Shown here one piece after another: positions 3,992 through 62,927 of a stretch of 64,000 nucleotides of DNA (position 1 is its first letter; every line of letters begins with the position of its first letter). This stretch comes from Planctomycetota bacterium. Its GTDB lineage: Bacteria; Planctomycetota; B15-G4. The notes beneath the pieces were generated by a model, which saw only the letters and a program-made list of their open reading frames with translations, had not been told where the DNA came from and did not search any database. The stretch lies in NCBI GenBank assembly GCA_029259745.1, contig JAJDEO010000069.1, positions 129,983-193,982 on the forward strand, written 5' to 3'. A program made the translations under genes and the position numbers.

Positions 3992-6454
3992 TCAGGGAAC
4001 GCTGACTTCGACGCCGTCCGACGCGACCCAGCCCTTGGACGCCGAGGCATCGGGCAGCCATACCTGAAGCCAGAAACGCGTGTCCGCCGGAACGCCTGGC
4101 GGCCAGGGTCCGCTGGCGGACCATTGACCATTGGCGTCGGTCGCCACGCCGGGAATGAGGACATCGATGTTGGGAACGAGCACGCCGCCGGCAAGCGGCG
4201 CGTCGAGCTGCGCGAAGCCGAGCACCACAAACCCGCGCGCCAGTGCCGGGCCGCTGGTGACGACCAGCGCCGTATCGCTGCCCATCGTCAGCGAACCCTG
4301 GAGCTTCATCAGCGGCTCACCGTCGCCGCCTGCAACGCCACCGCCAACGGGCATGGTCGCAGGCTCCGCGATGAAGGGCGAAATCGTCATCTGGTTGTTC
4401 TGGCGCCCCACGGTGATGACGTCGAGGCGGCCGTCGCCAGTCATATCGGCGACTTCGAGATAGTCGGACCGAGCCGTGACGAGCCGCTCGGTCGCGCCGA
4501 AGCCCTCGCGCACGCCATAGAGCACGCGCGGCGCCTGGTACTGCCAGTCGGCGGCCACGAGGTCGAGATGTCCGTCGTTGTCCACATCGACAGCCGACAT
4601 GTCCCGCAGCCGTCCACCGACATCGAATGTCTCGCGCGCCAGTTCGCCGCGCTGCCCGTCGCCGTAGTGCACTTCGATGATCCCGTTGTCCGTGCAGACC
4701 GCGAAGTCGATGTTGCCGTCGTCGTTGAAGTCACCCGCAGCGCCACCGCGGATGTCCGCGATCGAGTCCCAGATCACGATCTCCTCGCTCGGCTCGAGGT
4801 ACACGACCCACACCTGCGCTTCGGTGGTTTTGGCGAGCATGACGTCGAGGTGGCCGTCGGCGTCGACGTCTGCCACGTCGACATCCATGCTGCTGCCGTA
4901 CTCGGTCAGCGGCGAGAACCCTCCCAGCCCATCGCCGAGTGCCGTGCGCGTGGAGCCAACGAGGTCGACATTGTCGTCACCGTCGAGATCGATGATCTTC
5001 ATGGCACCGACGCTGTCGATCGTCGGCAGCTTCTTGAAGACACCGTTGTCGGCCAACGCGATCTCCGTCTTCTCGCCCGCGATGACGACGTCTTGGTCAC
5101 CATCGCGATCGAGGTCGCCGAGGCGTAGGTAGCTGGGAAACTGCATCGTGCTCTCGATGACCCAACCGAGTTCCGTCGCACCTGTCCCGTCGTTCTCGAG
5201 CCCCATGATGAAGTCGCAGACGTACTGGTGCGGGATCATCGCATCGATGTCGCCGTCACCATCGATGTCCGCGACGTCGAAGTTCTCTGGACTCATGTCG
5301 TACGTGGTGCTGACGTGTGCCTCGGCGAACGTGGCATCGCCGAGTCCGCGCAACCACGTCACGCCGATCGACGTCTGCATGACGAGATCGAGGACTCCGT
5401 CGCTGTCGACGTCCGCCGGTTCGACAAAGAACGAGCTCAGCGTCTCGCCAGTGAACACAGTCGTGAACACACCCGTGCCGTCACCGAGCGCCACGCGCAG
5501 GACGGGCTGTGCTTGGAAGGGCAGCGCTCGCGGTTGTGAGACCACGATGAGGTCGAGCAGGCCGTCGCCATCGGCGTCGCCGAGGCTGATCTCCGTGATC
5601 ACGTCGCCGTCCCAGTCACCGGACACCGCGGCGGCCGGAAGCAACGTGCCCGACGGGTCGCCGACGAGCACGCGAACCGTCGTCAAGTCGACTTCGATCA
5701 AGACGTCGGGACGCGCATCGCCGTCGACATCACCGACCGTCAGGCAGCGGATTTGACCTCCGACGGGAAAAACCTCGGGCATCGAGAACTGTCCGGTGCC
5801 GTCGCCGAGGTGGAGGTTCAACGCATCGTTGTCTTCGTCGGTGATGAGCAGATCGTCGAACCCGTCGGCGTCGATGTCCGCGACGGCGAGGTAGGCGATA
5901 TAGCCCGTGGCAATCTGCGCGACGGGCGCGAAGGCACCGGTTCCGTCTCCGAGTAGGATTGCGCAGGTCGAGCCTTGCTGAGCCACCGCGAGGTCGGCAA
6001 AGCCGTCGAGGTTGAAGTCACTCGAGAGGAAGTCGAACGACGTCGTGACGCTCGCCGACGACACCTCGGTCCATCCGCCGGCGCCGTCGTCGAGCAGCGA
6101 GAGCAACGTGAGGCCGGAGCCGATCGTGACGACGTCGAGTCCGAACTGTCCATCGACGTCGGCGGCCACGGCCTTCACGAGCCCACTGAACGGTGGATTC
6201 GTCACTCCGACGTGCTCGACGTCGAACGCTCCCCAGCCGTCGCCATGCAGCACCGAGATCGTGCCGTCAAACGGCGACGCGACGCCGATCAAACTCGGGA
6301 TCACGACATCGAGTCGCGCATCTCCGTTGAGGTCGGCGAGCGCGAACTGCCCCGGCGTCCGACCCGATGCGAGCCGCGGGAATGCCGCAACGTCGTCAGC
6401 CTGTGCACCCAGCCCCAACGCCAGGACGGCGGCGACGATGACGTGCGCACGCAT
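3992..6454 (-). CDS. secreted FG-GAP/VCBS-repeat protein with conserved ~95-aa C-terminal module
   Basis: ATG at 6454 (MRAHVIVAAVLALGLGAQA signal peptide). Numerous D-rich FG-GAP-like repeats (DxDGDG, VADxDGDG). C-terminal domain shared with 56651..58312 and 16779..17249. Confidence 0.75.
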   Translation of the reverse strand: MRAHVIVAAVLALGLGAQADDVAAFPRLASGRTPGQFALADLNGDARLDVVIPSLIGVASPFDGTISVLHGDGWGAFDVEHVGVTNPPFSGLVKAVAADVDGQFGLDVVTIGSGLTLLSLLDDGAGGWTEVSSASVTTSFDFLSSDFNLDGFADLAVAQQGSTCAILLGDGTGAFAPVAQIATGYIAYLAVADIDADGFDDLLITDEDNDALNLHLGDGTGQFSMPEVFPVGGQIRCLTVGDVDGDARPDVLIEVDLTTVRVLVGDPSGTLLPAAAVSGDWDGDVITEISLGDADGDGLLDLIVVSQPRALPFQAQPVLRVALGDGTGVFTTVFTGETLSSFFVEPADVDSDGVLDLVMQTSIGVTWLRGLGDATFAEAHVSTTYDMSPENFDVADIDGDGDIDAMIPHQYVCDFIMGLENDGTGATELGWVIESTMQFPSYLRLGDLDRDGDQDVVIAGEKTEIALADNGVFKKLPTIDSVGAMKIIDLDGDDNVDLVGSTRTALGDGLGGFSPLTEYGSSMDVDVADVDADGHLDVMLAKTTEAQVWVVYLEPSEEIVIWDSIADIRGGAAGDFNDDGNIDFAVCTDNGIIEVHYGDGQRGELARETFDVGGRLRDMSAVDVDNDGHLDLVAADWQYQAPRVLYGVREGFGATERLVTARSDYLEVADMTGDGRLDVITVGRQNNQMTISPFIAEPATMPVGGGVAGGDGEPLMKLQGSLTMGSDTALVVTSGPALARGFVVLGFAQLDAPLAGGVLVPNIDVLIPGVATDANGQWSASGPWPPGVPADTRFWLQVWLPDASASKGWVASDGVEVSVP

Positions 6455-6540: not shown

Positions 6541-7515
6541 TCAGCCGCGCCAGACCTCGCGCACGACTTCCTTGATGCGGTCGATCGCTTCTTGCGGCTG
6601 CTCGTTCTTCTTCATCGTGCGCACTTCTTCCCAGCCGCGGATGGCCGTCATGATCTTGGCCGTCCACGTACCGCGCCACCCGTACGTCTTGCGGAAGTAC
6701 GCGAGGCGGTTCTTGTGCCAGATCGCGCCGAACTCGGGGAACTGGCTCGTGCTCTTGCCCTCGTGATGCAAGATGCGAGCCTCGGCGATGTAGGCCACTT
6801 TCCAGCCGCGCTCGTGCGCGCGACGGCAGAGGTCGACGTCATTGAAGAAGAGCCACAGCGCGGGGTCGAAGCCGCCCAGGGTTTCCCAGAGCTCGCGCCG
6901 GATGACGAGTGCGGCGCCGGGTGGCTGGTCGACATCACGACTTGTCGTGTGGTCGAAATCGGCCATGAAGTAGCGCGGGATCTCTTTGTTCTTCGGGAAC
7001 TTGCGATCGAAGATCGTGTCGAAGAAGAACGCTGTGCGCAGCGTGGGGAAGGTCTTGCAGGACAGCTGCGGCGTGCCGTCGGGGTGGTCGAGGCGCGGGG
7101 CGCAGATGCCGTGGCCGGGGTGGTCGTCGAGGAAGGTGACGAGCGTCGTGAGCGCGCCGGGCGGCACTTCGGTGTCGCTGTTGAGCGTCATCACGTAGTC
7201 GCCGATTGCTTCGCGCGCGCCGATGTTGTTGCCGATCGCGTAGCCGTCGTTCTGGCCGTTGCGGATCAGGCGGAACTCGTCGAACTCCGCAGCCACCATG
7301 TCGGCGCTGTCGTCGGCGCTGTCGTTGTCGACGACGATCACCTCGAACGGCAACTCGCCGGCAACGGCACGCAGCGAGGCCAGGCACGCACGCAGCAAAT
7401 CCACCGTGTTCCAACTGAGGACCACGATCGAGAGGCGCGGCGCGCTGGCCGGGTGGACAGTCAAAGGCAGCTCGCCGTCAGGCGTGGACGAGGCCCGCCG
7501 ACGCGATCGTCGCAT
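6541..7515 (-). CDS. family 2 glycosyltransferase
   Basis: LSIVVLSWNTVDLLRACLASL ... VVDNDSADDS ... GYAIGNNIG are GT2 (GT-A, DxD) hallmarks. Confidence 0.8.
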   Translation of the reverse strand: MRRSRRRASSTPDGELPLTVHPASAPRLSIVVLSWNTVDLLRACLASLRAVAGELPFEVIVVDNDSADDSADMVAAEFDEFRLIRNGQNDGYAIGNNIGAREAIGDYVMTLNSDTEVPPGALTTLVTFLDDHPGHGICAPRLDHPDGTPQLSCKTFPTLRTAFFFDTIFDRKFPKNKEIPRYFMADFDHTTSRDVDQPPGAALVIRRELWETLGGFDPALWLFFNDVDLCRRAHERGWKVAYIAEARILHHEGKSTSQFPEFGAIWHKNRLAYFRKTYGWRGTWTAKIMTAIRGWEEVRTMKKNEQPQEAIDRIKEVVREVWRG

Positions 7516-8668
7516 CGGTGGGCTGCGATTCGCCGACCTTCGTCATCGAGACCATGTGGATGACCTCGAAGTCCTTGCGGCGCAGGAAACGCACGTAGTA
7601 CGTGGCCGGCACGAGGCCGTCCCAGACCGACGCCGGGATCTTGAAGTTGCGCGTGATGTCGAGGCGACCGGCCGCGAAGACGAAGCCCGGATCGGCCGAG
7701 ATCTCGGCGAGGTAGGCGCCGCTGCCCGGCACGTCGAGCACGGGTGCGGTCTCGCGTTCACCGAGGTCGACGACGTCGGCGAACGAGTGGCCCGCACCGT
7801 GACCCGAGCCGGTCCAGAGCTGGTAGGCGCCGTAGCCGAGGCTGCCGAGGACGCTGTAGCGGTTCTTGAAGAAGCGTCGGCGTGACACCTCGTAGCGGGA
7901 CATCGACGCGGCCTGTGCCTGCCCCGCGCTGCGGTTGAAGAAGTGCACGGCCTCGGCGCGTGGCACGAGGTCGGTGGTGAAACCGCGACGCTGCAAGCGC
8001 AGGCAGAGGTCGGCGTCTTCGAAGTAGAAAGGGTAGTCGGCGTCGAAGGGCCCGAGATCGCGCGCGAGGTCGGCGTCCATCACCATGCAGAAGCCCGAGA
8101 TCATCGAACTCGAAAGCGGCTCCGTGGCCGTCCACGACTCGACGGCGCGACGGCTGCGCTCGCGCGCGTGGCGCTTGCCCCACGACGTCGTCGTGCGCGC
8201 AAGGCCCTCGGACGTGAGTTCGCACAGCGACGGCAACTCGACGGGCGGCAGCAGGAAGAAGCGCTGCGCATCGAGGTAGCCGCGCGGGCCCACCAGACCA
8301 CACCCGTCGGCCTCGCGCAGATGGTTCAACAGCGCCTCGACGGCACCGCGGAACAGCATCACGTCGGGGTTCGTCATCATGACGTAGCGCCCGCGCGCCG
8401 CCTCGGCCGCGAGGTTCATCGCCGCGCCGTAGCCCGCGTTCTGCGCCGAGCGGATCAGGTTCACGCCCCGGTCGGCATCGAGCGCGGCGAGGTGTTCCTC
8501 CTCGTCGGCACCCGACGCGTTGTCGACCACGATGACCTCGAGCGAGCCCGGCTCGCCGTCGTCACCGTAGAAGACCTGCTTGCGGAGGTTCTCGACGAGT
8601 GCGCGCGTCATCGCGCCACTCTTCCAGTTGACGATCAGCGCGGAGAGGACAGGAGCGGCCGTCATCAC
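7478..8668 (-). CDS. family 2 glycosyltransferase
   Basis: SALIVNWKSGAMTRALVENL ... VVDNASGADEE ... NAGYGAAMN are GT2 hallmarks. 38-nt overlap with the downstream GT2. Confidence 0.8.
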   Translation of the reverse strand: MMTAAPVLSALIVNWKSGAMTRALVENLRKQVFYGDDGEPGSLEVIVVDNASGADEEEHLAALDADRGVNLIRSAQNAGYGAAMNLAAEAARGRYVMMTNPDVMLFRGAVEALLNHLREADGCGLVGPRGYLDAQRFFLLPPVELPSLCELTSEGLARTTTSWGKRHARERSRRAVESWTATEPLSSSMISGFCMVMDADLARDLGPFDADYPFYFEDADLCLRLQRRGFTTDLVPRAEAVHFFNRSAGQAQAASMSRYEVSRRRFFKNRYSVLGSLGYGAYQLWTGSGHGAGHSFADVVDLGERETAPVLDVPGSGAYLAEISADPGFVFAAGRLDITRNFKIPASVWDGLVPATYYVRFLRRKDFEVIHMVSMTKVGESQPTDATIASAGLVHA

Positions 8669-10005
8669 GGACTCTCAGGTTCAGGGGAAGCGTCAGGGGA
8701 TTCGGAGGACTCATCGAGCGGAGGCACGAGCTCTTCATCGATCGCGAAGCGGTGATGGAGACGCACGAGCCCGGGCATGTTCACGTCGAGCGTCACGAGG
8801 ACGTTCTTCTCGACCTGCCGATGATCGTACATGTGGACGCCGTGCTCATCGAACAGGTAGCCGACAACCGTGTATTCGCCCTCGTTCAGGCGCAGATCGG
8901 GCAGCTCGACGCGGGCGGTGTGCTCGCCGACGTCCCAGAGGGTGGGAAGCCCTTCGAGCATCGAGTTGAACGTGGCCGCGAGAACGTTGTCCGTGCGGAA
9001 GATCGCCGCCCCGACGTTGACGCCGTTGCCGGCCTGGCGCACGCGGAAGGAGAGCTCGAAGACGAGGTCGGTCCCGATCGGGACGGTGTCCGGCATCGGA
9101 CGATGGGACGTCTCGTCGCGGACGTAGAGGCGACAGGAGTCGATGCAGGGCAGGTTGTCGCCCGAGGCCTGCTCGTGCCCCGCGACGTGCTCGTTGGGGT
9201 CGTTGTCGAGCGAGCGCTCGTAGTTCGCGTACTTGAGCGTGACATCCTGCGGCAGGCCGAGCATCTCGGCGCGACCGTCCTTGATCCAGATGACCTGGTC
9301 GCAGATCTGGCGCACGTCGTAGAGGCTGTGGCTGCAGAAGAGGATCGTCTTGCCGCGCTTGCGGAAGTCGAAGATGCGGTCGATGCACTTCTTCTGGAAG
9401 TACAGATCCCCCACCGCCAGGATCTCGTCGATGATCAGGACGTCGGGGTCGATCGCCGTGGCGACGCTGAACCCCAGCCGCATGATCATGCCGGAGCTGT
9501 ACGTGCGGATCGGCTGGTCGATGAACTCACCGAGCTCGGCGAAGTCGATGATCTCGTCGAGCTTGTCTTCGATCTTGGCCTTCGAGAAGCCCTGCACCTG
9601 CGCCGCGAGGTAGATGTTCGCGCGGCCCGTGAACTCGGAGTGGAAGCCCGTGCCCAGCTCGAGCAGGCTCGCGACGTTGCCCTTGATCTCGAAGGACCCC
9701 TCGGTGGGCATCGATGTGCCCGCGAGGATCTTCAGCAGCGTCGACTTGCCCGCGCCGTTCTCGCCGATGATCCCGAGGGCCTTGCCGTGCGGGACACCGA
9801 AGCTGACGTCGGAGAGCGCCACGTGCGGCTTGTGGTACTTCTTGCGCGTGAAACTCAGCGCCTCCTTCATGCGCGCCATCGAACTCGGATAGAGCCGATA
9901 CGTCTTGCCGAGGTTGCGGGCGATGATCGCGTAGTCGGTGTCGGCGTCGAGATCGAGCGCCAGACCCGGCTCCTGCGTTTCGTCGATGTTACGGATGCCG
10001 GCCAT
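8665..10005 (-). CDS. ABC transporter ATP-binding protein, Wzt/TagH-like polysaccharide exporter
   Basis: Walker A GENGAGKST and ABC signature LSGGQ-like YSSGMIMRLGF. C-terminal extra domain as in Wzt (O-antigen/teichoic acid export). Stop overlaps the next gene. Confidence 0.85.
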   Translation of the reverse strand: MAGIRNIDETQEPGLALDLDADTDYAIIARNLGKTYRLYPSSMARMKEALSFTRKKYHKPHVALSDVSFGVPHGKALGIIGENGAGKSTLLKILAGTSMPTEGSFEIKGNVASLLELGTGFHSEFTGRANIYLAAQVQGFSKAKIEDKLDEIIDFAELGEFIDQPIRTYSSGMIMRLGFSVATAIDPDVLIIDEILAVGDLYFQKKCIDRIFDFRKRGKTILFCSHSLYDVRQICDQVIWIKDGRAEMLGLPQDVTLKYANYERSLDNDPNEHVAGHEQASGDNLPCIDSCRLYVRDETSHRPMPDTVPIGTDLVFELSFRVRQAGNGVNVGAAIFRTDNVLAATFNSMLEGLPTLWDVGEHTARVELPDLRLNEGEYTVVGYLFDEHGVHMYDHRQVEKNVLVTLDVNMPGLVRLHHRFAIDEELVPPLDESSESPDASPEPESP

Positions 10006-10946
10006 CAGACTTCATCCGCGAAGCGGTGTTTGCAGCTACGGAAGTACGTGTAGCCGAGCACGAAGACGATCACCGACACGATCGACACAGTGACGAGCTT
10101 GCCGACCGGGAAGGTCATGTCGCCTTCGGGCCCGCCGTAGGTGACCATCGCGCGCCAGAGGTCGAGGATCGACGCCATGGGGTTGTACTCCATCGCCGTC
10201 ATGCCGAGCTCGACGCCGTCCAGCGAGGCCTGGGCCTCGGCGACGTCGGCCAGCGTCTTCTGACCGAGCGCCATGCGGTTCTGCACGTCGACGAGCTGGT
10301 CGGCCGCGGCCTGGCGAATCGCGCCGAGGTCGTAGAAGACGGGCGTCGTGAACATCCAGAAGGTCACCAGCACCGGCACGGCCTGGGCGATGTCGCGCAC
10401 GAACACGTTCGCCGCCGACAGGAACAACGTGATGCCGCAGATGAACATCGCCTGCACGATCAACACCACCGGCGCCCAGAGCAGCTCCGGCGGCAGGCTG
10501 CCGTTCACGTAGAGCTCGAGCGGGATCAGGATCGCGAAGCCGATCAGGAAGTAGACGTGGAAGACGATCACCTGCGCGACGACGAGCAGCTCGCTCGGGA
10601 AGGCGATCTTCTTGATCAGGTTCGCGTTCTCGAGAACGATCCCGGTGCCGCGCGACAGACACTCTGCGAGCGCCGTCCAGGGCAGGATGCCCGTGATCAG
10701 ATAGAACGTCGTGCGCCAGCCCTTGCCCGCCTCGTCGTGCGGCGCCAGCGTGTCCGTGAAGCCGATCTTGAGCAGCTTGCTGAAGATCAGGAAGTAGATC
10801 GCGAACAGGATCAACGGCTGGACGACAGGCCAGACCCGCCCGAACGCCGAGCCTTCGTAGCGCGCTTTGAGCTCACGCCAGACGAAGGCACCGACCAGCG
10901 CGCGGTGGCGCCAGATCACCATCGGCAGGGAGAATGCGGAACTCAT
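10005..10946 (-). CDS. ABC-2 type transporter permease, Wzm-like
   Basis: Six-TM ABC-2 permease layout. Immediately upstream of and coupled to the Wzt-like ATPase. Confidence 0.8.
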   Translation of the reverse strand: MSSAFSLPMVIWRHRALVGAFVWRELKARYEGSAFGRVWPVVQPLILFAIYFLIFSKLLKIGFTDTLAPHDEAGKGWRTTFYLITGILPWTALAECLSRGTGIVLENANLIKKIAFPSELLVVAQVIVFHVYFLIGFAILIPLELYVNGSLPPELLWAPVVLIVQAMFICGITLFLSAANVFVRDIAQAVPVLVTFWMFTTPVFYDLGAIRQAAADQLVDVQNRMALGQKTLADVAEAQASLDGVELGMTAMEYNPMASILDLWRAMVTYGGPEGDMTFPVGKLVTVSIVSVIVFVLGYTYFRSCKHRFADEV

Positions 10947-11034
10947 GCCGGGGAGCGGAGCCTTGCGGGAAGTGGTGACATCGGGTGCCCATGTCGAAGC
11001 GGGAGAGCATACCCCGCCATCGGCCAGGGATCAC

Positions 11035-16328: not shown

Positions 16329-16782
16329 TCAGTGCAAGTGCAGCACGAACTCTGCCTCGTCGATGAGTTCGCTGCCCACGATGCGCACCCGCATGACCCA
16401 CTCGCCCGGCATGTGGAGCAGCACGCCCGAGAGGACGAAGACGCCGTCGTCGCGCCGCGTCATCTCGGGCGTCGTGACGAGCCCGTGCCCGTGCTGGGGC
16501 ATCCGCAGCGTGGCAGCAACCTCGGCGTCGTCACCAACGACCGCGTCGCTCTCGAGTTCCCGCACGGTGAACTCCAGCTCGAAGCGTTCGTTGAACGGCG
16601 GCGGATCGGGTGACCGGCGCCCAGGCCACGCGGAAACCGCGCTTGCGCGATGTCACCTCCCGAGGTCCATCGAGCAGCCATGGTTCGGCTTCGAGCGTGG
16701 GTGGTGCGTCGCCTCCGCCTCCGCAGGAAGCGAGCACCCACGCCAGTGCGACGGCAGCACCCGAAAGCTGTCGGGTGATCAC
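16329..16782 (-). pseudogene. frameshifted lipoprotein gene (signal peptide/lipobox frame plus C-terminal frame)
   Basis: GTG at 16782 overlaps the upstream stop (caGTGAtc) and encodes MITRQLSGAAVALAWVLASCGGGGD..., with lipobox LASC. That frame loses GC3 near 16600-16615 at a ccgccgccg run. A second frame with GC3 above 85% (listed ORF 16329..16565, extendable upstream to ...PDPPPFNERFELEFTVRELESD) continues to the stop at 16329. The HGHG / HMPGEW motifs suggest a small beta-sandwich metal-binding-like protein. Confidence 0.4.
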
Positions 16783-17249
16783 TGCACCTCGAAGGCGAGG
16801 GCCCCGGACGTCAGCCAGCCACCTTGCCCGTCGGGCCACACCCACTGGGCGTAGGCGACGGCCCCTGCGAGGTCGCGCGCATCGGGGATCGGGAGTACGC
16901 GCTCGGCCCAACCGCGTCCGTTGGCCTGCGACGGGATCGCCAGGATCAAGGCGTCGACATCGACGTCGAGCGAGGCGCCACCGACGGACGAGGGCTCGAG
17001 GTTCGTCGAGACGAGGAGCCAACCGCTTGCCCACGGCGGCACGTGCAGGCAGTAGGAACCGAAGTATCGCGCTCCCACGCGGGGTTGGCTGAGCACGCCC
17101 TGAACGAGCAGACCGTCAGGAGCCACCTCGGGTTCACTGACACGCTGGACGCCGAAGGGGAGCGGCGTGAGACGTAAGGCGGCCGCCGGGTTGCCCCACA
17201 CCCCAGTACCCGGTGCTTCAGCGGCCGCGACACGCGCGTTCCGCTGCAA
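16779..17249 (-). CDS. small protein consisting essentially of the conserved C-terminal module found on the two FG-GAP proteins
   Basis: C-terminal ~100 aa (…SLDVDVDALILAIPSQANGRGWAERVLPIPDARDLAGAVAYAQWVWPDGQGGWLTSGALAFEVQ) aligns with the last ~95 aa of 3992..6454 and 56651..58312. GC3 is high in the distal two thirds. Start is uncertain: the first ~50 codons have weaker GC3 and no signal peptide. Confidence 0.5.
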   Translation of the reverse strand: MQRNARVAAAEAPGTGVWGNPAAALRLTPLPFGVQRVSEPEVAPDGLLVQGVLSQPRVGARYFGSYCLHVPPWASGWLLVSTNLEPSSVGGASLDVDVDALILAIPSQANGRGWAERVLPIPDARDLAGAVAYAQWVWPDGQGGWLTSGALAFEVQ

Positions 17250-26933: not shown

Positions 26934-27049
26934 CGGCCGCGAACGGCGGGGCGCCGTGCTGGGACCGGCTGCACACGTAGGCTAAGTTGCGAGCCGACGC
27001 CCCGAGCGCGGGGCGTCATCCCGGCCCCACCTCCGCCCAGCCCCGGCAC

Positions 27050-27829
27050 GTGACCGACTCCCCCACCCTTCCCGACGACGACAGCGACGACGGCCACGAC
27101 AGCCTCGCGCCCGCCGACGCGCCGCCGGCCGAGGCCGTGCCCGAACCCGCGCCGGTCGACATGCCCGGCGCGGCACCGGCCGTCGTCTTCGCCGAGACGC
27201 CCGAGCCGCTCCACCCGAAAATCCGCATCGCGTGGCTCATCGAGGAACTCATCGGCGCGGTCGTCCTCGGCGGCATCGCCTGGTGCGTCGACTTCCTCTG
27301 GCTCTCGCCGCACGTCGACTGGTGGCCCTTCGCGCGCGGGGTGCTCTTCACGGTCGTGCTCGTCGGTCAGCTGGTCTGGGCCGCGATCTCGCCCAAGCTC
27401 ACGTACCGCCACTGGCGCTACGCCGTGCGCGCCCACGACGTGCTCACGATGTCGGGCATCTTCTGGCGCACGCAGCGCTCGGTGCCGCGCCTGCGCATCC
27501 AGCACGTCGAGCTCGAGACGGGCCCGATCACGCGCCGCCTCGGACTCGTCTCGGTCACCTTCTACACGGCCGGCACGGGCGCGGCCGACGCGAAGATCCC
27601 CGGCCTGCGCCCCGAGGTCGCCGAGGCGATCCGCGACCGACTCCTTGAACACGACCTGCCGTCGCTCGCGGCGCGCGAGGCCGTCGGCCACGAGAGCGAC
27701 GCGGGCAACGAAGACGCTGACGACGTCAACTCGGACAAGCCCGCACCGAGCGCCGCGTCGCGCACGGCGCGCAAGCTGCGCGACGTCGAGGGCCAGCTGA
27801 TGCTCTTCACACCCTCCGACGCGTCGTGA
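27050..27829 (+). CDS. bacterial PH-domain (bPH_2/YdbS-like) membrane protein
   Basis: LHPKIRIAWLIEELIGAVVLGGIAW ... two TM helices then a PH-like domain (IQHVELETGPITRRLGLVSVTFYTAG). Acidic Pro-rich N-tail. Start is ambiguous (TTG 26987, GTG 27050 or ATG 27161). Stop overlaps the next gene (GTGA). Confidence 0.6.
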   Translation: MTDSPTLPDDDSDDGHDSLAPADAPPAEAVPEPAPVDMPGAAPAVVFAETPEPLHPKIRIAWLIEELIGAVVLGGIAWCVDFLWLSPHVDWWPFARGVLFTVVLVGQLVWAAISPKLTYRHWRYAVRAHDVLTMSGIFWRTQRSVPRLRIQHVELETGPITRRLGLVSVTFYTAGTGAADAKIPGLRPEVAEAIRDRLLEHDLPSLAAREAVGHESDAGNEDADDVNSDKPAPSAASRTARKLRDVEGQLMLFTPSDAS

Positions 27830-29372
27830 GCGTCACCCTGCCGCCGCCCGCCGAAGCGCCGCTCGACAAGAACGCCGTCGCGCAGTTCAGCGAGCCGCGC
27901 AGGCTGCACGCGATCACGCCCGTCGTCGAGGCCCTGCGGCGCATCCCGGCGTTCATCGTGCCCGCCGGCGCCTTTGCCTTCACGCAGGACCGCGACTCGG
28001 GCGTCTGGATCATCGTCCTCGCCATCGCGGGCTTGATGTCGCTGCTGCGCCCGACGCTGCGCTACATCGCCGTGCGCTACTACGTTCACGCGGGGCACCT
28101 CGTCATCCACGAGGGGCTTTTCATGAAGGTCGACCGGTCGATCCCCGTCGAGCGCACCAGAACATCGACATCAAGCGCGCCCTCGTGCACCGGCTGACGG
28201 GCGTCGCGGAGATGCGCATCGAGACGGCCGGCGGGTCGGACGCCGAGGCCGACCTGACCGTGCTGTCGATGGCCGACGCCGTCGAGCTCCGGAAGCTCGT
28301 GCTCGAGCTGCGCCACGCCAAGCGCGGCGACACCGAGACTCCCCGCGACGAGGACGCCACGTCAGCCGACGACGAGGGCGTCGACGTCGTCGCACTTACG
28401 CTCCCCGACCTGCTCATTGCTGGCGCGACGGCAAACCGCATCGGCGTCATCATCGCAGCGTTCTTCGGCTTGCTCGAGCTCTCGAACTTCGGCGTCGACG
28501 AGCTCCGATCGCTCAGTGAACTCCGCTCGCTCAGGGAGCTCGACGTCGTCGCGCACCAAGAGATCGCGGCCGCGCTCGCCATCATCGCGCTCGTGTTGGC
28601 CGGCTGGCTCGTTTCTATCGTGCTCACCGTCATCACCTACTACGGATTCCGCCTGCGTCGCACCGGCGACGACCTGCGTTCGCGCTACGGATTACTCACG
28701 CAGCACGAGGCCACGATCCCACGCGCGCGACTCCAGGCGTTGCACATCGAGGCCAACCCGCCCCGCCGCCTCACGGGGCACGTCACGGTGACGGCCCACA
28801 CGGCGGGCTCGGGCGACGAGCAAGGCGAGGGATCGTCGCACCCGATTCTGGCGCCGATCCTGCGCGAGACGGACGTCGCGACGCTCGCCCGCGACGTCTT
28901 CCCTTCCTGCGCCCTTGACGCCACGCCCCTGCGCGCCGTCCACCCGCGCTCGCGGCGCCGCGCCTTCGTGCGCGCGTTCCTCGTCCTCGCCGTCCCGACG
29001 CTGATCGCCACGTTCGCGTGGCAGACGCGCGCCGCGTTCGGACTGATCGCCGCCCTGCCGATCGCGGCGCTCTACGGTCATCTACGCTACCGCTCGCTCG
29101 GCTACGCGCTGACGGCGCACCACGTCATCACCCGCAACGGCATCTGGACGCGGCGCATGTGGGTCGTGCCGCTCGAGAAGGTGCAGACGGTGGCCGTGCA
29201 CAGCAGCCCGTTCCAGCGCAGGCTCGGGCTCGCCAGCGTTTCGATCGACACGGCCGGCGGCCACGTGTGGAGCCGGCCGCGGATCATCGACGTCCCGACA
29301 GCCGTCGCCCACCAGATCCTCGAGGAACTCTCGGTGGCGTCCGATCGGACGGGTTCGCTGCGAGGAGTCTGA
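27826..29372 (+). pseudogene. YdbT-like triple bPH-domain membrane protein, interrupted by a 1-nt frameshift (or sequencing error)
   Basis: ORFs 27826..28197 and 28185..29372 are one gene. Frame 1 reads ...SIPVERTRTSTSS* where the family consensus is VERIQNIDIKRALVHRLTGVAEMRIETAGG; the second frame encodes this from QNIDIKR onward. The shift is at ~28155-28158 (gagcgcaCCagaac versus expected gagcgcaTCCagaac). Confidence 0.5.
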
Positions 29373-35772: not shown

Positions 35773-38700
35773 TCACTTCCTCTGCGCGGCGAGGTAGGCC
35801 AGCAGGTCGGCGATCTCTTCGCGGGTGAACGTCGAGAGCAGGCCTTCGGGCATCGCCGAGACCTGCGACGTCCAGCGGTCGTCGACGTCGGCCACGGCGA
35901 CCTCTTCGATCGTGCTCGCGTAGGGATTGATCTGCACGGAGGCCGTGGCGTCGTCTTCGGCGCGGACGCGGCCCGACACGACGCTGCCGTCCTTCAGGAC
36001 GAAGATCTCGCTCGCGTAGCCCGCGGCGATCTCGGCGCTCGGGTCGAGGAGCTGCGCGAGGAGGTCTTCGTTGCTCGTCCAGCGCGCGACGCCGGCTTCG
36101 ATCGCCGGGCCCGTCTCGCCGCCCGCGCCGTCGACCGCGTGACAGAGGGTGCACGAGGCATCGACGAAGACATCGCGGCCGCGCTCGACCGAACTGCTCG
36201 GCACGTCGTCGAGGATCGGACGCAACTCGTCGAGCGTCCACTCGGCGACGAAGACACGCTCGCAGTTCTCGGCCATGACGGAGGCCTCGGCCGCGGCGAC
36301 CGCATCGACGACATCGAGAGCCGCATCGCCGGGTGCGACGACACGCAACGTGCCGTTCATGCGCGTCCAGTGGCCGGGGACCGTGCAGACGAAGGGATAG
36401 TTGCCCGGCGCGCTCGGCGCATCGAAGCTGAGAGTCTGCGATTGGCCTGACGACAGCAGTCCCGTCGCGACGATCACGTCGGGGACGTCGGGGACGAAGG
36501 CCCGCTCCCAGGCGTCGGGCTCGGCCGCCATGGCTTCGGCCGCGCGCCCCACGCGCGCAAGTGCACCCGGGGCCGTGACGACGAGGTTGTGCGGCATGAT
36601 GTCCGTGTTGTCGAAGACGAGTTCGATCGGACGACCCGCGGCGACGACGAGTTCGGTGCGGTCGAAGAGCAGCGCGTCGTGCACGGGACGCACGAGGAAC
36701 ACCTGCGGTCCGAGCGTGCGACGAAGGCGCCTGAATCCGTCGACGACGCCCGATGACATGCGCGGGATCCACTCGTCGGCGAAGGCCAGCACGCTGCGGC
36801 CCGTCGGCGTCATCCAGTAGCTCTCGGGCTTCGCGACGGCGAGCGTCTCGAAGAGCCCGCGCTCGAGCTCCTCGCGGTTGGCGTCCGACCATCGCTCGGC
36901 GTCGATCCCGCGCAGAGCGGCTACGACATCGGCGCGCAGCTCGTCGTCGCGCAGGCGATCCACGAGTGTCGTGATCGTCACCGGGACGCGCACGTCGAGC
37001 GCCCCCAAGGCGCGGACGGCCGCACGACGCAGCGTGAGGCGCGGCGGCTCGAGCGTCCATGACATCGTGGGCCCGAGCTGCCCGTCGTGTTGGTACGCGG
37101 CGACAGCTCGACGCTGACCGTCGAGGACATCGATGACGACGTCGTCGAGGCGGCGACCGTATGGGCCGTCGGTGCGATTCCAGAGCGCGATGCGATCGAT
37201 GCGTTGCGTCGCGCCGAGGTCGAGCTCCCACCATGGGTTCGGCTGGTCCTCGAGCGTGTGCGTCTGCGCGCCGTCCAACCATGCGCCGCTCGTGATGCCG
37301 TCCAGTGCATTGCTCGGCACGCCGCCCCAGTTCGTCGACGACTGCGTCGCGCTTCCCGCCGGCGCGACGTTCGTGCCGGCCGCGAACACCTGCACCTCGG
37401 CCAGCGTCAGCGTGCGCTGATCGCCCGCGAGAGACACACGCACGTAGCGGCCGGCCACGGCGTTCGCGTCGCCGAGTTGCGTCGCGAGCGCGGGCGGCGG
37501 GCCGTCGAGCAACGCAGCGACGCGATCGTAGACCGTCGCTCGCGGGGACATCTTCGTCGTGTAGGCCAAGGCGTCGAGGAACTCGGTGAGGGCCCCGGCC
37601 GACGTGAGCCCCGTGCTCCAAGCCGACTCGATGTCATCACTGGCGTCGATCGCTGCCGCCGTGGCGAGGCGGCGCGTCGAGCGGCGCTGTCCCTCGCGCG
37701 CGAGGCGCGTCAGGGCAACCGCAGAAGCGCCCGCATCGACGTCACGCAGCGTCGCGAAGAGGTCGGACAGCAGGTGATCGGCGTGACTCGACGCCTCGTC
37801 CTCGCGATCCGCCGTGTCGATCGCAGCGAGCAACACCTCCACCACCGACTCGCCGCGCGCGTCGGCGAGGCGCTCTGCCGCGGCGCGATACGTCACGATG
37901 TCGAGGCCGTGGCGCGTGAGCCGCTCGGCGTCCGCGACCACGCTCGGCGCGACGCGCGCGAGTTCATCCGTCGTCAGCATCGACAGCAGGTGCGCCAGGC
38001 CCGTCGGATCGTCGGCGCAAAGCACCTCGCCGCTCGCGAGGGCCGAACGCCACGGGACGTCGAGGGTCACGAGTGTTTGGTGCAGCGCATCCTCGAGGAA
38101 GGCGTCCATCGGCTGGGACAGAACCGACACCGCGGCCTCGGCCGCCCCCGCCGTCGGCACGAAGCTCAGCCCCACCACGGCCTCGCAGCGCACGCGCGGA
38201 TCGACATCACGAGCAGCCTTCGCGAGCAGCTCCGGCGCGTCATCGATCAGGCGCCGCATGTGACGCACCGCGCGCACGGCCGCTGCGCGCGCTCGGGAGT
38301 CGCGCGCGTCGAGCAAGCGCAGCAACAGCGGACGATCGACAACCGTCTGACCCTGCTGAACCCAGAGCGCCTCGAGCAGGTGGTGCTCGTGCTCGGGGTC
38401 GTTCGCATCGAGCGACTCGACCCAACGACGGGCCGCAACCACGACGTCGACCGTCGCGCGTCCACTGAGCTCGATGCGCGTGCGGTAGCGCACGCGATCT
38501 TCCGGCGTCCTCAGGTTCTCGAACAGCACGTCGAGCGGTTGGTCGGCAATCGGCACGGGGTCGAGCAGCGGACGTCCATCGGCCACCACGCGGTAGATAC
38601 GGCCGTGCAGACGATCGCGGCTCGGGTCGCGCAAGTGATGTTGCATGTGCCCGATGATCGCGTTGTGCCAGTCGGCGACGTAGAGCGCGCCGTCGGGACC

Positions 38701-40695
38701 CACCTCGAGATCGACCGGCCGGAAGTTCAGGTCGTCGCTGAAGAGGATCGGTTCGATCTCGTCGGCGCCGAAGCCGGCCCCGTCGTCGCGCAGCTGGTAC
38801 TGGAAGATGCCGCGGAAGCCGATGACGTTCGCGATGAGGTACGTGTCGCGGAAGGCCGTCGGCATGTGTCGACTCGACAGGATCTCCGTGGCCGCGGCCG
38901 GGCGACTACGCTGCGGGAAGAACGGTCGGCCGCGCGTGCGCTTGGCCGGGAAGATCGCGTGCCCACTCAGCGGCCCGACGACGTAGTTCTGGTTGCCCGT
39001 CCCATCGGTGACGAAGTCCTGTCCCCAGCGATCGAAAACGTGACCGTGCGGGTTCGCGAAGTTGAACGGCATGTAGCGTTCGACGTGCCAGGTCCGCGGA
39101 TCGAAGCGCCACACACACGCGTTGTTGTTGCGCACGACGCCGTGGACGGTCTCGATCTGTGAGTGGTGGAAGACGCCTTCCTGGAAGTAGAGCGCGCCGT
39201 CGGGGCCGAGCACGAACGAGTTGGCGCCGTGATGCGTGTCGGCGCTGGAGAGACCGTGCAGCACGCGCGTGCGCTCTTCGATGCTCGCACGCCCATCACC
39301 GTCTTGGTCCTTCAAGAAGAACAGGTCGGGCGCCGTGGCCACGAAGACACCGCCGTTCCAGAACTCGATCCCCGTCGGGTTGTGGAGACCTTCGGCGAAC
39401 GGAATGCACGTGTCGGCGCGTCCATCGCCGTCGTGGTCTTCGAGCACGAGGATCGCGTCGAGACCCTGGCCGATCGACGCACCGCCGACGTCCGCGGGCA
39501 ATCCGTGCGGGTACGTCGACCAGACCGCCACCCAGAGTCGCCCGCGCGTGTCGAACGCCATCTGCACGGGGTTGACGAACTCGGGGAACATCGACTCGTC
39601 GGCGAACAGCTCGACACGCAGCCCGCGCGCCGGCGTCATGTCCTCGAGCGCGTCCGTGCCGTCGCGGTAGACGTGCTCGCCGTCGGGTCCGTCACCGGGG
39701 CGATTCGTCTTCACCGGGATCACCGGAGGGACCTCGACCTCGGCCAGCTCCTGGACGACGGCGATGAAGTCTTCCGCCTTGCCGGCCGCCACGAGCCACA
39801 TGTAGCGATCGGCACGCGCGACGTGGGCATCGAGCACATCGAGCTCCCGCTGAAGCACCTCGTAGTTCGTGACGCCGTCGTACTCGAGCGACGAGCGTCC
39901 GCCGTAGACGTTGTAGCCATCGGTCGCGCGATAGCGGTTGAACCACATCGCGTTCTTCAGCCGCACGGCCATGCGCAGCTCGCCATATCGGTCGGACGTC
40001 GGCTGAGGCGTGCCGGCCCCTTCGATCCGCGTGAACAGCGCCTCGGTGAGGAGGCGATGACCGCGCTCGTTGAGGTGGATGCCGTTGATCGTGGTGTGGT
40101 CGGCGGCCGCGAAGTCGTCCGCGAGAAGCGCGGCGAGATCGACGAACGGCAGGCCGCGCTCGTCGGCGAGGGTGTGCATCGCGCGGTTGAAGGGCGCGAG
40201 GCGCGTCGTGTGGTCGAGCGCCGTCGGCACCAGCGGGCTTTCAGCGTCCTCGGCGGCACAGGGGCCGACGAGCAGCACGCGACGCGTCGGAACGCCGTCG
40301 TCGTCCGCGGCCTCGAGCATCGTCAGCCACGTCGCCAAGTCACGCCGGAAGTCGGCGGGCGAGCCCTCGAAACTCTCCGCGAACCCCACGAACGCCAGCA
40401 CGACCGACGCACCGACGCGTCGCAGCCACTCCTCCTGGGAGCCGAAGCCGTCTGTGCGCTGACCGCCGCGCACGCCGTCACCCGAGAAGCCGAGATTGCG
40501 CAGCGACAGACGATGCTCGGGGAACGCCCGATGCAACGCCGTCTCGAACTGTCCGTCGTGTTGCATGCGCTCGGCGAGCGCGTTGCCGACGATCGCGATC
40601 CGATCCCCCGGCTGCAGCACGAGCCGCGCCTCGTCGGGTTCGGCAGCCACGAGCGGGACAAGACACGACAACAGCACGAGCGACAGACGAAGCAT
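35773..40695 (-). CDS. giant multidomain PVC-type protein: SGNH/GDSL-like hydrolase, putative membrane-bound dehydrogenase beta-propeller, HEAT repeats, F5/8 type C (discoidin), cupredoxin-like, C-terminal CxxCH cytochrome c domain
   Basis: Listed ORF 35773..41874 is fused upstream to an R-rich wrong-frame stretch. True start is ATG 40695 (MLRLSLVLLSCLVPLVAA signal). Motifs: IAIVGNALAE...RNLGFSGDG; NPTGIEF..HGANSF (propeller); PRVRCEAVVGLSF (HEAT); RYVRVSLAGDQRTLTLAEVQVF...WWELDL (discoidin); MPHNLVV...FVCTVPGHW (cupredoxin); CTLCHAVDG (heme c). Architecture matches Pirellula/Verrucomicrobium-type heme-binding proteins. Confidence 0.8.
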   Translation of the reverse strand: MLRLSLVLLSCLVPLVAAEPDEARLVLQPGDRIAIVGNALAERMQHDGQFETALHRAFPEHRLSLRNLGFSGDGVRGGQRTDGFGSQEEWLRRVGASVVLAFVGFAESFEGSPADFRRDLATWLTMLEAADDDGVPTRRVLLVGPCAAEDAESPLVPTALDHTTRLAPFNRAMHTLADERGLPFVDLAALLADDFAAADHTTINGIHLNERGHRLLTEALFTRIEGAGTPQPTSDRYGELRMAVRLKNAMWFNRYRATDGYNVYGGRSSLEYDGVTNYEVLQRELDVLDAHVARADRYMWLVAAGKAEDFIAVVQELAEVEVPPVIPVKTNRPGDGPDGEHVYRDGTDALEDMTPARGLRVELFADESMFPEFVNPVQMAFDTRGRLWVAVWSTYPHGLPADVGGASIGQGLDAILVLEDHDGDGRADTCIPFAEGLHNPTGIEFWNGGVFVATAPDLFFLKDQDGDGRASIEERTRVLHGLSSADTHHGANSFVLGPDGALYFQEGVFHHSQIETVHGVVRNNNACVWRFDPRTWHVERYMPFNFANPHGHVFDRWGQDFVTDGTGNQNYVVGPLSGHAIFPAKRTRGRPFFPQRSRPAAATEILSSRHMPTAFRDTYLIANVIGFRGIFQYQLRDDGAGFGADEIEPILFSDDLNFRPVDLEVGPDGALYVADWHNAIIGHMQHHLRDPSRDRLHGRIYRVVADGRPLLDPVPIADQPLDVLFENLRTPEDRVRYRTRIELSGRATVDVVVAARRWVESLDANDPEHEHHLLEALWVQQGQTVVDRPLLLRLLDARDSRARAAAVRAVRHMRRLIDDAPELLAKAARDVDPRVRCEAVVGLSFVPTAGAAEAAVSVLSQPMDAFLEDALHQTLVTLDVPWRSALASGEVLCADDPTGLAHLLSMLTTDELARVAPSVVADAERLTRHGLDIVTYRAAAERLADARGESVVEVLLAAIDTADREDEASSHADHLLSDLFATLRDVDAGASAVALTRLAREGQRRSTRRLATAAAIDASDDIESAWSTGLTSAGALTEFLDALAYTTKMSPRATVYDRVAALLDGPPPALATQLGDANAVAGRYVRVSLAGDQRTLTLAEVQVFAAGTNVAPAGSATQSSTNWGGVPSNALDGITSGAWLDGAQTHTLEDQPNPWWELDLGATQRIDRIALWNRTDGPYGRRLDDVVIDVLDGQRRAVAAYQHDGQLGPTMSWTLEPPRLTLRRAAVRALGALDVRVPVTITTLVDRLRDDELRADVVAALRGIDAERWSDANREELERGLFETLAVAKPESYWMTPTGRSVLAFADEWIPRMSSGVVDGFRRLRRTLGPQVFLVRPVHDALLFDRTELVVAAGRPIELVFDNTDIMPHNLVVTAPGALARVGRAAEAMAAEPDAWERAFVPDVPDVIVATGLLSSGQSQTLSFDAPSAPGNYPFVCTVPGHWTRMNGTLRVVAPGDAALDVVDAVAAAEASVMAENCERVFVAEWTLDELRPILDDVPSSSVERGRDVFVDASCTLCHAVDGAGGETGPAIEAGVARWTSNEDLLAQLLDPSAEIAAGYASEIFVLKDGSVVSGRVRAEDDATASVQINPYASTIEEVAVADVDDRWTSQVSAMPEGLLSTFTREEIADLLAYLAAQRK

Positions 40696-40820
40696 CGGCG
40701 CGACCTCGAGTGGAGAGGTCGACCACCTTAGCAGCCGGTTGAAGGACTGCTTCGGATGGGATGGGCGTGCCGGTTGGTTCTGGTCGTGCGCGGAAGATCG
40801 CCGCGGCTTGCCCCGACGCG

Positions 40821-56650: not shown

Positions 56651-58312
56651 TCAAGGCACGGTGGCCGTGAGTCCGTTGCTGGCCGAGGCGCCGAACGGGA
56701 TCGACGCATCGATCACCCACCACTGGAAGACGAAGTCGGAGCCCGAGGGCGCGCCCGCTGGCCAGGTCCCGAGAAGTTCGAGCTTCTCGAACGCGAACAC
56801 AGTGCTGAAGATGTCCACGAAATCGGGGCTCGGCACGAGCACGCCGCCCTTGTACGGCGCGTTGATCTGCGAGCCGCCTATGACGAGCGCGGCCACACCG
56901 TTGGCGAGCGCTTCGGGAAGCGCGTTAGAGATCGAGATCCGGAAGTCGGAGCCGGGGACGAGCGTGCCGCCGCCGTCGAACACGTGCGCACCCGAGGAAC
57001 CCGGGTGACCGAGGCCGCGGTCGATCCAGAGGGCCTCGTTGAGCGACGTCACCCAGATCGATCCCGTCTGCGGTGGGTTGATGAAGTCGTTGTCGTTCGA
57101 GGCACCGATGACAAGCTCGGAGCGTCCGTCTCCGTCGAAGTCGGTCGACGCGAGGCTCGCCCCGAAGAACGCGTCTGTCGTCAGCGTGCCCTCGAACGTT
57201 CCCGCTGTGTCGCTGATCTTCTGGTGACCGTTGACCGTACCGTCAGGCTCGAGAAACAAGACCCAAGCTGCACCGTGATTCGAGCCTCCGTCATCATCGA
57301 AGACAGCCCCGACAGCGAGCTCCGCGACGCCGTTTCCGTCGCGGTCGGGAATCGCGGTCAGCGCGGACCCGAAGCGGTCGCCGGCCTTCAGCGCGCCTTC
57401 GAAGCCTCCGTCGCCGAGTGCGATGCGCTCGGCATCCCGCACCGTGCCGTTGCCGTTCAGGAAGACGATCCAGACCTCGCCGCGCAAACTGTCCGCCGTG
57501 TTCGCGCCGACAGCGATGTCGACGACGCCGTCTCCGTCGACGTCACCGATGTTGGCCACGGCGACGCCGAAGTTGAAGGCAGGCGAGACGGGCAGTCCAC
57601 CGACGCCGTCCGCGATACGCACCGAGTTCTTCACGGTGCCGTCCGCCTTCATGAACAAGATCCAGACCGCGCCCGTGCCGTCCTTCCATGCGCCGATCGC
57701 GATGTCGTTGACGCCGTCGCCATCGAGATCACCGAGCGCTGTCGCCGAACGGCCGAAGCGTCCGCCGGGGCTGAGCTGCCCCGCCATGCCGCCGCTCGAG
57801 TTCCCGATCACGACGGAACTCTTCACTGTGCCGTCAGCGTTGAGGAACAGCGTGAAGACCTCGCCCGTCGCGTTGTCACCGAAGTTGCTCCCCGCGACGA
57901 GATCGAGCACGCCGTCACCGTCGAGGTCACCGACGTCGACGACGCTGGAACCAAAGCGATCGAACGGGGCCACGGGACCGACGAAGCCACCCTCCGAGGC
58001 CGAGATCTTCTGTTCGGCGCGGACGCTGCCGTCGGCGTTCATGAACAGGATCCAGAGCGCGCCGGTGAACGTGCCGCCGTCATCATCGAGGTTCGCGCCC
58101 ACGGCCAGGTCGTGCACGCCGTCCCCGTCGAGATCACCGAGTCGCGCCGACGAGAAACCGAACGAATCGACCACATCGAGCGAGCCGCCGAAGCCGCCGA
58201 GACCCGCGCTGATCTCGACCTCGCCCGTCACGACGCTCGGCGTCTGCGCCACAGCTCCGACGCTCAGCGCCACCAGGGCAACGCCGAGAATGCACACATC
58301 TGCCGTCAGGGT
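56651..58312 (-). CDS. secreted FG-GAP/VCBS-repeat protein with the conserved ~95-aa C-terminal module
   Basis: True start MGRTLTADVCILGVALVALSVGAVAQ. Listed ORF 56651..58819 has a wrong-frame N-extension. Repeats LGDLDGDGVHDLAVGA / VGDLDGDGVLDLVAG / LGDLDGDGVNDIAIGA / IGDVDGDGVVDIAVGA. C-terminal module homologous to 3992..6454 and 16779..17249. Start coordinate is +/-1 uncertain. Confidence 0.7.
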   Translation of the reverse strand, partial: TLTADVCILGVALVALSVGAVAQTPSVVTGEVEISAGLGGFGGSLDVVDSFGFSSARLGDLDGDGVHDLAVGANLDDDGGTFTGALWILFMNADGSVRAEQKISASEGGFVGPVAPFDRFGSSVVDVGDLDGDGVLDLVAGSNFGDNATGEVFTLFLNADGTVKSSVVIGNSSGGMAGQLSPGGRFGRSATALGDLDGDGVNDIAIGAWKDGTGAVWILFMKADGTVKNSVRIADGVGGLPVSPAFNFGVAVANIGDVDGDGVVDIAVGANTADSLRGEVWIVFLNGNGTVRDAERIALGDGGFEGALKAGDRFGSALTAIPDRDGNGVAELAVGAVFDDDGGSNHGAAWVLFLEPDGTVNGHQKISDTAGTFEGTLTTDAFFGASLASTDFDGDGRSELVIGASNDNDFINPPQTGSIWVTSLNEALWIDRGLGHPGSSGAHVFDGGGTLVPGSDFRISISNALPEALANGVAALVIGGSQINAPYKGGVLVPSPDFVDIFSTVFAFEKLELLGTWPAGAPSGSDFVFQWWVIDASIPFGASASNGLTATVP

Positions 58313-58421
58313 TCTTCCCATTCTCTCTCTCCTCGTCTCGATCTCTTGGTCATGCCGCATGGGCGGAGAAAGGCTCAACGCCACCAACGCGCGAAGCGGA
58401 CGGACCCGTCTCGGAAAAGAT

Positions 58422-62794: not shown

Positions 62795-62927
62795 CGTCCA
62801 ACTCCCCTCTGCGACACGAACCTCGACACCCGACGCAAGCCCCATCGTAGTGGACGTACGCGAGGCGTGCCCTGGTAGCATCCGCTCTCCGCTTTCATCC
62901 CCACGAATCCATTTCCACGAGCCTTCC

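Follow-up and report, generated by a model that had tools for sequence, protein, structure and literature searches.

Two FG-GAP proteins with a common C-terminal module

We analysed a stretch of 64,000 nucleotides from a Planctomycetota bacterium (GenBank assembly GCA_029259745.1, contig JAJDEO010000069.1, positions 129,983 to 193,982; hereafter the window), in which two genes encode proteins, here called A and B, that consist of a Sec signal peptide, an FG-GAP repeat region and a shared C-terminal module (Table 1). The signal peptides are of the typical Sec type (MRAHVIVAAVLALGLGAQA, followed by DD, in A; MGRTLTADVCILGVALVALSVGAVA, followed by QT, in B). Both proteins carry multiple FG-GAP repeats above the Pfam gathering score, with 11 stretches of A matching FG-GAP_3 (E 4.8e-50, 168 bits; FG-GAP, E 3.2e-16) and five stretches of B matching FG-GAP (E 3.6e-32, 110 bits). 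A protein of 820 amino acids (aa) identical to A is present in public collections (P0002), and the public protein P0001 equals B in length (556 aa). The start codon of B is the ATG at 58321 and not at 58312, where a first reading of the DNA and its translations (the sequence-only reading) had put it.

The modules of A and B are 36% identical over 121 columns (pairwise BLASTP, E 5e-19), a likeness that, as judged from this alignment, is far beyond chance. The central claim of the sequence-only reading, that the two proteins share a C-terminal module, is thereby borne out; however, the length of ~95 aa given to it (3992-4290 in A) cuts off the first three strands of a domain of ~120 residues.

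Table 1. Coordinates of the proteins, modules and related genes. Positions are those of the window, except for the last five rows, which give positions within the respective loci of other genomes.
Feature	Position	Strand	Description
Protein A	3992..6454	minus	820 aa; Sec signal peptide, FG-GAP/VCBS repeat region, C-terminal module; read from the open reading frame (ORF) and its translation
C-terminal module of A	3992..4354	minus	120 aa and stop codon; ends in ...GVEVSVP; predicted immunoglobulin (Ig)-like beta-sandwich
Protein B	56651..58321	minus	556 aa; Sec signal peptide, FG-GAP propeller, C-terminal module
C-terminal module of B	56651..57025	minus	~124 aa and stop codon; ends in ...GLTATVP
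ORF C	16779..17249	minus	156 aa, TTG start, no signal peptide; orphan, not a demonstrable member of the module family
Gene downstream of C	16329..16782	minus	Lipoprotein-type signal peptide in one frame, YtkA-like domain (16329-16652) in another; not of the module family
Signal peptide-module-metallo-beta-lactamase (MBL) orthologue, locus L002	1588-2922		N-terminus after the signal peptide C(C)DPWTDLG... (whole group)
Orthologue, locus L006	5842-7203		Same group
Orthologue, locus L018	5821-7212		Same group
Orthologue, locus L026	5362-7203		Same group
Orthologue, locus L049	5875-7200		Same group

Directly 5' of A (6541-11030, minus strand) lies a polysaccharide-export-type cluster with two genes for family-2 glycosyltransferases (6541-7515 and 7478-8674), one for a Wzt-like ATP-binding cassette (ABC) ATPase with a Wzt_C domain (8665-10005) and one for a Wzm-like ABC-2 permease (10005-11030), beyond which lie a ROK kinase and a sulfatase. 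Directly upstream of B, two paralogous genes (58422-60665 and 60662-62992, minus strand) encode CarboxypepD_reg-like repeat proteins of ~750 aa, the first of which has an N-terminal transmembrane or signal segment; a 4-base overlap between stop and start codons suggests that the pair forms an operon for beta-sandwich proteins of the surface or periplasm.

The module belongs to a large domain family

As the sequence-only reading had proposed, we built a hidden Markov model (HMM) from the modules and searched for further copies. An exhaustive HMMER search of 1.84 billion (1.84e9) cluster representatives with the profile of the A and B modules yielded 4198 matches with E<=1e-3, of which 2276 had E<=1e-10. 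The family is visible only by such an exhaustive profile search; a word-indexed protein search with the A module alone found no relatives. An HMM of 148 members from which A and B had been left out recovered A with 123 bits (E 2.7e-37) and B with 118 bits (E 1.2e-35). No model in Pfam-A or NCBIfam matches the module of A or B (E<=1), and in the literature we found no account of such a C-terminal sorting domain in Planctomycetota. We conclude that A and B each end in one copy of a domain whose large family has no name, and that this family of thousands of members, without a Pfam-A or NCBIfam model, is new.

The family consensus reads W.DLG.GLAG..G.P.L.G.G.L..GS...L.L..A.P...A.LV.G.S.L.APFKGGVLVP.PD....GL.TDA.G.L.L..TWPAGVPSG...W.Q.WI.DA.AP.G..ASNGL..T.P, followed by the stop codon, and its invariant aromatic and polar positions are W84-P85, Q97, W99 and D102. 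The motifs first picked out in A and B turned out to be the most conserved positions of the family, GGVLVPxxD corresponding to PFKGGVLVPxPD, with WP.G.P, QxWxxD and the terminal Pro also kept.

Throughout the family the module is found at the very end of its carriers. Among the top 150 matches, it is followed by no residue in 131 and by one residue in 17, and in 119 of 125 testable genomic copies (~95%) it ends 0-2 residues before the stop codon. The terminal residue is Pro in 127 of the 150 top matches, mostly as TP, VP or AP, and in 98 of the 119 genomic copies. Two modules in one protein were never seen, each carrier having a single copy, and the module adjoins its passenger directly, with no low-complexity linker before it.

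Predicted structure of the module

A structure prediction, likewise proposed beforehand, was obtained with AlphaFold2 from an alignment of 40 module sequences and is all-beta, with 10-11 strands (predicted local distance difference test (pLDDT) score 96.3, predicted template modelling (pTM) score 0.87). The alignment of 40 sequences was required; the model computed from A and B alone was not usable (pLDDT 48). In the predicted model, the strands form a compact Ig-like beta-sandwich resembling the MG domains of alpha-2-macroglobulin and the Ig repeats of adhesins, with 8-17% identity over 80-94 aligned residues; unlike such generic Ig repeats, which are internal and in tandem, the module is a single terminal copy. 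A Foldseek search with the model returned nothing at E<=1e-3 (template modelling scores of ~0.4-0.5), and a sequence-profile search of the PDB with the module found no relative. As far as the model goes, the predicted fold confirms an autonomous beta-sandwich domain and gives no pointer to its function.

Carriers are exported proteins with unrelated passengers

The sequence-only reading had asked whether carriers always have a signal peptide. By a crude rule, an N-terminus resembling a signal peptide is present in 89 of 105 full-length carriers; of the other 16, several are evidently truncated or begin with a hydrophobic N-terminus that lacks K/R. A generic Ig-like fold with no tie to secretion had been named in advance as a finding that would speak against a sorting role; the predicted fold is generic, but the module is strongly tied to secreted proteins.

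Pfam searches of 82 carriers identified FG-GAP families (27), PKD (7), DUF7948, Laminin_G_3, DUF7453, UnbV_ASPIC, beta-helix, SGL, GSDH, C-type lectin, Peptidase_S8 (subtilase) and several esterases as passengers, a range that includes a pyrroloquinoline quinone (PQQ) dehydrogenase, and none of the models matched covers the module. With NCBIfam, the same 82 carriers gave the 'choice-of-anchor' NxxGxxAF repeat (2), choice_anch_Q, the HAF repeat (3) and the catalytic domain of an extracellular polyhydroxyalkanoate (PHA) depolymerase. By the naming scheme of NCBIfam, a choice-of-anchor or HAF-repeat family is a passenger whose C-terminal sorting signal differs from lineage to lineage; in the carriers of these families found here, the module occupies this C-terminal sorting-signal slot. 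Within a single metagenome-assembled genome (MAG), OFTM9, the median identity among 26 modules is 42%, and similarity is detectable in only 13 of 300 passenger pairs.

The only architecture seen in which the module is not C-terminal is that of an orthologue group present in five MAGs (Table 1), in which the signal peptide is followed by the module and then by an MBL-fold domain of ~280 aa with an HxHxDH motif, the module thus being N-terminal in the mature protein.

A module-only gene, as the sequence-only reading had proposed for ORF C of the window (see below), was not encountered among the 113 carriers in genomic context: the smallest complete carrier has 277 aa, and the lone carrier call of 133 aa is cut by the end of its locus. 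We also considered matches of 130-220 aa in protein collections as stand-alone modules and rejected them; they lie on contigs of ~1 kb or have neither start nor signal peptide and are most likely fragments.

Genomic distribution

To place the carriers in their genomes, we scanned one genome per GTDB species for the single exact peptide PFKGGVLVP, using seven closer sequences as the query set, and from 150 confirmed stretches took the best 80, which correspond to 78 loci of ~12 kb (flanks of up to 6 kb per side). These best 80 of 150 stretches are spread over 14 genomes. Ten of the genomes bear a Planctomycetota or Phycisphaerales label; the rest comprise one each under Pseudohongiellaceae, Acidimicrobiales and Polyangiaceae and one unplaced MAG. 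The 'Pseudohongiellaceae' MAG (JBLIMM01) has module genes on five loci (L002, L043, L047, L054 and L058). Two of them, L002 and L054, share 78-79% nucleotide identity with genes of binchicken_co46_894 (GC 63-66%), a MAG labelled Phycisphaerales, so that the gammaproteobacterial assignment of JBLIMM01, or of its module contigs, is probably wrong. For HK-STAS-PLAN-21, another carrier genome, its authors give a GC content of 72% and the GTDB classification p__Planctomycetota; c__UBA1135 (supplement of PMC8518188), a class that clusters with the Saltatorellus clade, which has been cultured (bioRxiv 10.1101/817700). Those carrier genomes that can be placed are high-GC uncultured Planctomycetota.

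A six-frame HMM scan of the 78 loci yielded 130 modules. The distinct copies per MAG, which are lower bounds because they come from the ~12-kb loci only, number at least 30 in OFTM9, at least 21 in OFTM49, at least 16 in HK-STAS-PLAN-21 and at least 15 in binchicken_co46_894. Many loci have tandem arrays of 2-5 carrier genes, with 3-5 carriers within ~12 kb in L001, L007, L014, L039, L053, L070 and L076, and these arrays are sometimes interleaved with genes for extracytoplasmic function (ECF) sigma factors and Ser/Thr kinases (for example in L001, 6421-7008 and 11220-12365). This arrangement hints at local expansion and possibly at ECF-controlled expression. Locus L070 of OFTM9 was also considered as an orthologous counterpart of the A locus, on account of an amidohydrolase neighbour with 70% nucleotide identity; we rejected this synteny as evidence of orthology, given that gene orientation differs and that the L070 carrier has only 277 aa.

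Comparison with known sorting signals

In its logic, the module comes closest to the C-terminal domain (CTD) of the T9SS (type IX secretion system; type A, TIGR04183/PF18962 Por_Secre_tail; type B, TIGR04131/PF13585 CHU_C), which likewise is a folded Ig-like beta-sandwich at the extreme C-terminus, present once per protein on Sec cargo with diverse passengers, with tens of carriers per genome in one lineage. This likeness, a beta-sandwich at the C-terminus of Sec-exported cargo, is a resemblance in logic only: the T9SS type A and type B HMMs matched neither A nor B (E<=1) nor any of the 82 carriers (NCBIfam, E<=0.01), and the type A Pfam HMM matched none of 40 modules (E<=10). Unlike the T9SS CTD, the module is longer (~120 aa, 10-11 strands), is non-terminal in one orthologue group and has Planctomycetota as its host phylum, in which, to our knowledge, no T9SS is known; genes for SprA, PorV, PorU or PorK-N were not seen in the window or in the ~12-kb loci of related MAGs. 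The T9SS itself has been described as a system of Bacteroidota (PMC10202324, PMC10515386).

With the PEP-CTERM/exosortase, LPXTG/sortase, GlyGly-CTERM/rhombosortase and MYXO-CTERM systems, the module has in common many paralogous carriers per genome, signal peptides, a terminal position and lineage restriction, and like sorting signals of the transmembrane type it sits on choice-of-anchor and HAF-repeat passengers. However, those signals comprise ~20-35 residues made up of a motif, a transmembrane helix and a basic tail, whereas the module is a 120-residue soluble beta-sandwich ending in ...T-P. The PEP-CTERM HMM (TIGR02595) has no match on the module, which closes with a beta-strand and Pro and has no hydrophobic tail, and the LPXTG motif, the transmembrane helix and the basic tail are absent from A, B and the C-termini of the family. 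The initial judgement that the module is not a T9SS type A, PEP-CTERM or LPXTG signal thus agrees with the lack of any such Pfam or NCBIfam match and of a transmembrane tail. Finally, the PPC domain (PF04151) is, like the module, a C-terminal beta-sandwich on secreted enzymes; unlike PPC, which has no HMM match in A, B, the 82 carriers or the 40 modules, the module has a far broader range of passengers and a much higher paralogy per genome.

Possible role of the module

We infer the function of the module, and the existence of a partner, from its terminal position, conserved last residue and single copy, from the signal peptides of its carriers and their unrelated passengers, choice-of-anchor families included, and from the tens of paralogues per genome in a narrow lineage. 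Because of these features, we favour sorting or anchoring and give about even chances to the module being a lineage-specific targeting or anchoring domain with one shared partner. According to this model, Sec would export the pre-protein across the inner membrane by means of the N-terminal signal peptide; the folded C-terminal sandwich would then be a common handle recognised by the shared partner; and this partner would either carry the cargo through the outer membrane or let it dock there or at the cell surface. The logic would be that of the T9SS CTD, reached with a non-homologous domain. For A and B, the model would place the FG-GAP propellers, a kind of module typical of adhesion or ligand binding, on or outside the cell surface. 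We consider it possible, but distinctly less probable than such a targeting or anchoring role as such, that the domain tags the cargo of an undescribed system by which UBA1135/Saltatorellus-related Planctomycetota secrete proteins across the outer membrane or attach them to the surface, making it a functional analogue of the T9SS CTD with an independent origin in the Planctomycetes-Verrucomicrobia-Chlamydiae (PVC) group.

Several observations weigh against the targeting or anchoring model. The orthologues with an MBL-fold domain indicate that the domain is not obligatorily C-terminal and can work elsewhere, an architecture that favours position-independent docking or anchoring over a strict C-terminal export signal. 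Neighbour clustering of 578 heuristic gene calls from the 78 loci and the window revealed no dedicated partner, processing enzyme or transporter, so that the co-occurring enzyme or transporter for which the sequence-only reading had suggested looking did not turn up; only Ser/Thr kinases (at 15 loci), sulfatases (at 9), ABC ATPases (at 7) and ECF sigma factors recur as neighbours, and all of these are generally abundant in planctomycetes. Moreover, the scan with one exact peptide biases the apparent lineage restriction toward the PFKGGVLVP sub-family.

The strongest alternative, which we regard as a tentative one, is that the module is a passive binding domain with no role in transport or sorting, that is, a lineage-specific Ig-like or lectin-like domain for a common external or surface ligand (a glycan, polymer or protein), comparable to a carbohydrate-binding module or substrate-binding domain. 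The Ig-like fold, with its resemblance to alpha-2-macroglobulin MG domains and adhesin repeats, is consistent with this, and the invariant W84-P85, Q97, W99 and D102 could form a binding site. Extracellular polyhydroxybutyrate (PHB) depolymerases normally have a substrate-binding domain C-terminal to the catalytic domain, and in one carrier the module is C-terminal to the catalytic domain of an extracellular PHA depolymerase; its N-terminal place in the mature MBL-fold proteins points in the same direction. However, the position of a binding module usually varies and tandem copies are frequent, whereas here there is strictly one copy per protein, ~95% of the copies run up to the stop codon and the terminal Pro is conserved; the passengers, which include propellers, lectins and proteases, share no evident substrate.

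An appendage that serves folding, stability or oligomerisation in the manner of PPC or the P-domains of secreted proteases, which would aid the passenger after Sec export, may be trimmed and would hold no addressing information, appears unlikely: a C-terminal beta-sandwich that abuts its passenger with no low-complexity linker, on secreted hydrolases including an S8 subtilase, would suit such a part, but the passengers comprise many autonomous folds that need no common chaperone, the module has no Pfam PPC (PF04151) match, and its median identity of 42% across unrelated passengers in one genome argues for one shared external constraint rather than passenger-specific co-folding.

ORF C and the gene downstream of it

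The sequence-only reading had counted ORF C as a third copy of the module, a claim that we could not sustain. BLASTP aligned A with C at 26% identity and with 14 gaps only when the composition correction was switched off, and gave no alignment of B with C. The A and B HMM scored C at -0.5 bits and the family HMM of 150 sequences at -0.4 bits, a match also obtained with 889 of 2000 shuffles of C (44%), and by the family HMM C ranks 62nd among the 454 window ORFs that received a score (683 six-frame ORFs in all). Comparison of C with the 40-sequence profile by hhalign gave a probability of 0.8% (E 0.07), and a word-indexed search of 5.8 billion proteins returned C itself and no other homologue. 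By these measures, the sequence evidence for C as a module copy is at chance level. The GC content at the three codon positions of C (0.75/0.55/0.80) is compatible with coding and atypical, its TTG start sits only 3 bases after GGAGG, and C may be a spurious call in the ~490-bp gap between a radical-SAM (QueE-like) gene and the YtkA-like gene. That C is instead a real but highly diverged or decayed module copy, whether as a protein made of the domain alone or as what is left of a carrier gene, could draw on the GC content of 0.80 at third codon positions and on weak local alignments by HMMER and hhalign in the register first proposed (DVDALILAIPSQANG versus PDLLLAGLPTDAAG, and AQWVWPD versus Q.WI.D), but is very unlikely in view of the chance-level scores, the missing alignment to B, signal peptide and homologues, and the complete lack of stand-alone modules among the carriers in genomic context.

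The gene between C and der starts with a GTG at 16782 and has a lipobox-type signal peptide (...AWVLAS, followed by CGGGG...GFRVAWAP). The YtkA-like domain lies in another frame (SPDPPPFNERFELEFTV...MPQHGHG...), with a switch of frame near 16610-16630 in the three-frame translation, and the fused translation matches Pfam YtkA with E 7e-5 and 23.8 bits, under the gathering score of 25.9. Because the domain and the signal peptide are in different frames, the gene apparently carries a frameshift (+/-1); the Logan assembly of run SRR15505515 has an identical sequence at this gene. The GTGA overlap by which C was said to be coupled to a lipoprotein gene does exist, but the downstream frame meets the apparent frameshift before it reaches the YtkA-like domain. 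With C not upheld as a module copy, its translational coupling to a lipoprotein gene no longer counts as an argument; the comparative hallmarks of a sorting or anchoring domain are seen at the level of the family.

Other features of the window

The window has a GC content of 68%, and a few of its genes are 67-70% identical in nucleotide sequence to module-carrying MAGs. Its gene content includes a sulfatase, a Ser/Thr kinase and a giant DUF7133/cytochrome-c protein. Judged by these three features, the window probably belongs to the same planctomycete group as those MAGs. The giant protein (35773-41874, minus strand; ~2000 aa) combines GDSL lipase, DUF7133, F5/8 type C (galactose-binding), plastocyanin-like copper-binding and cytochrome c domains and has relatives in loci L050 and L069. 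An adjacent gene pair on the plus strand (26981-29372) encodes bPH_2 (bacterial PH) membrane proteins, with one copy of the domain in one and three in the other; such pairs are common and their function is obscure. A tRNA scan and an Rfam scan of the whole window were both empty.

Implications

The envelope of Planctomycetota is unusual, and the way in which such large numbers of enzymes and adhesins reach the surface is poorly understood. With the hallmarks of a sorting signal and thousands of members, the module family offers a concrete handle on this surface delivery, and it defines a candidate 'secretome' of the lineage. The family profile can be used to seek a partner translocase, sortase or receptor by phylogenetic profiling. 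Strains of the Saltatorellus clade have been cultured (bioRxiv 10.1101/817700), and if the family is carried there, the hypothesis would be directly testable. A curated model of the domain would annotate the C-termini of thousands of 'hypothetical proteins'.

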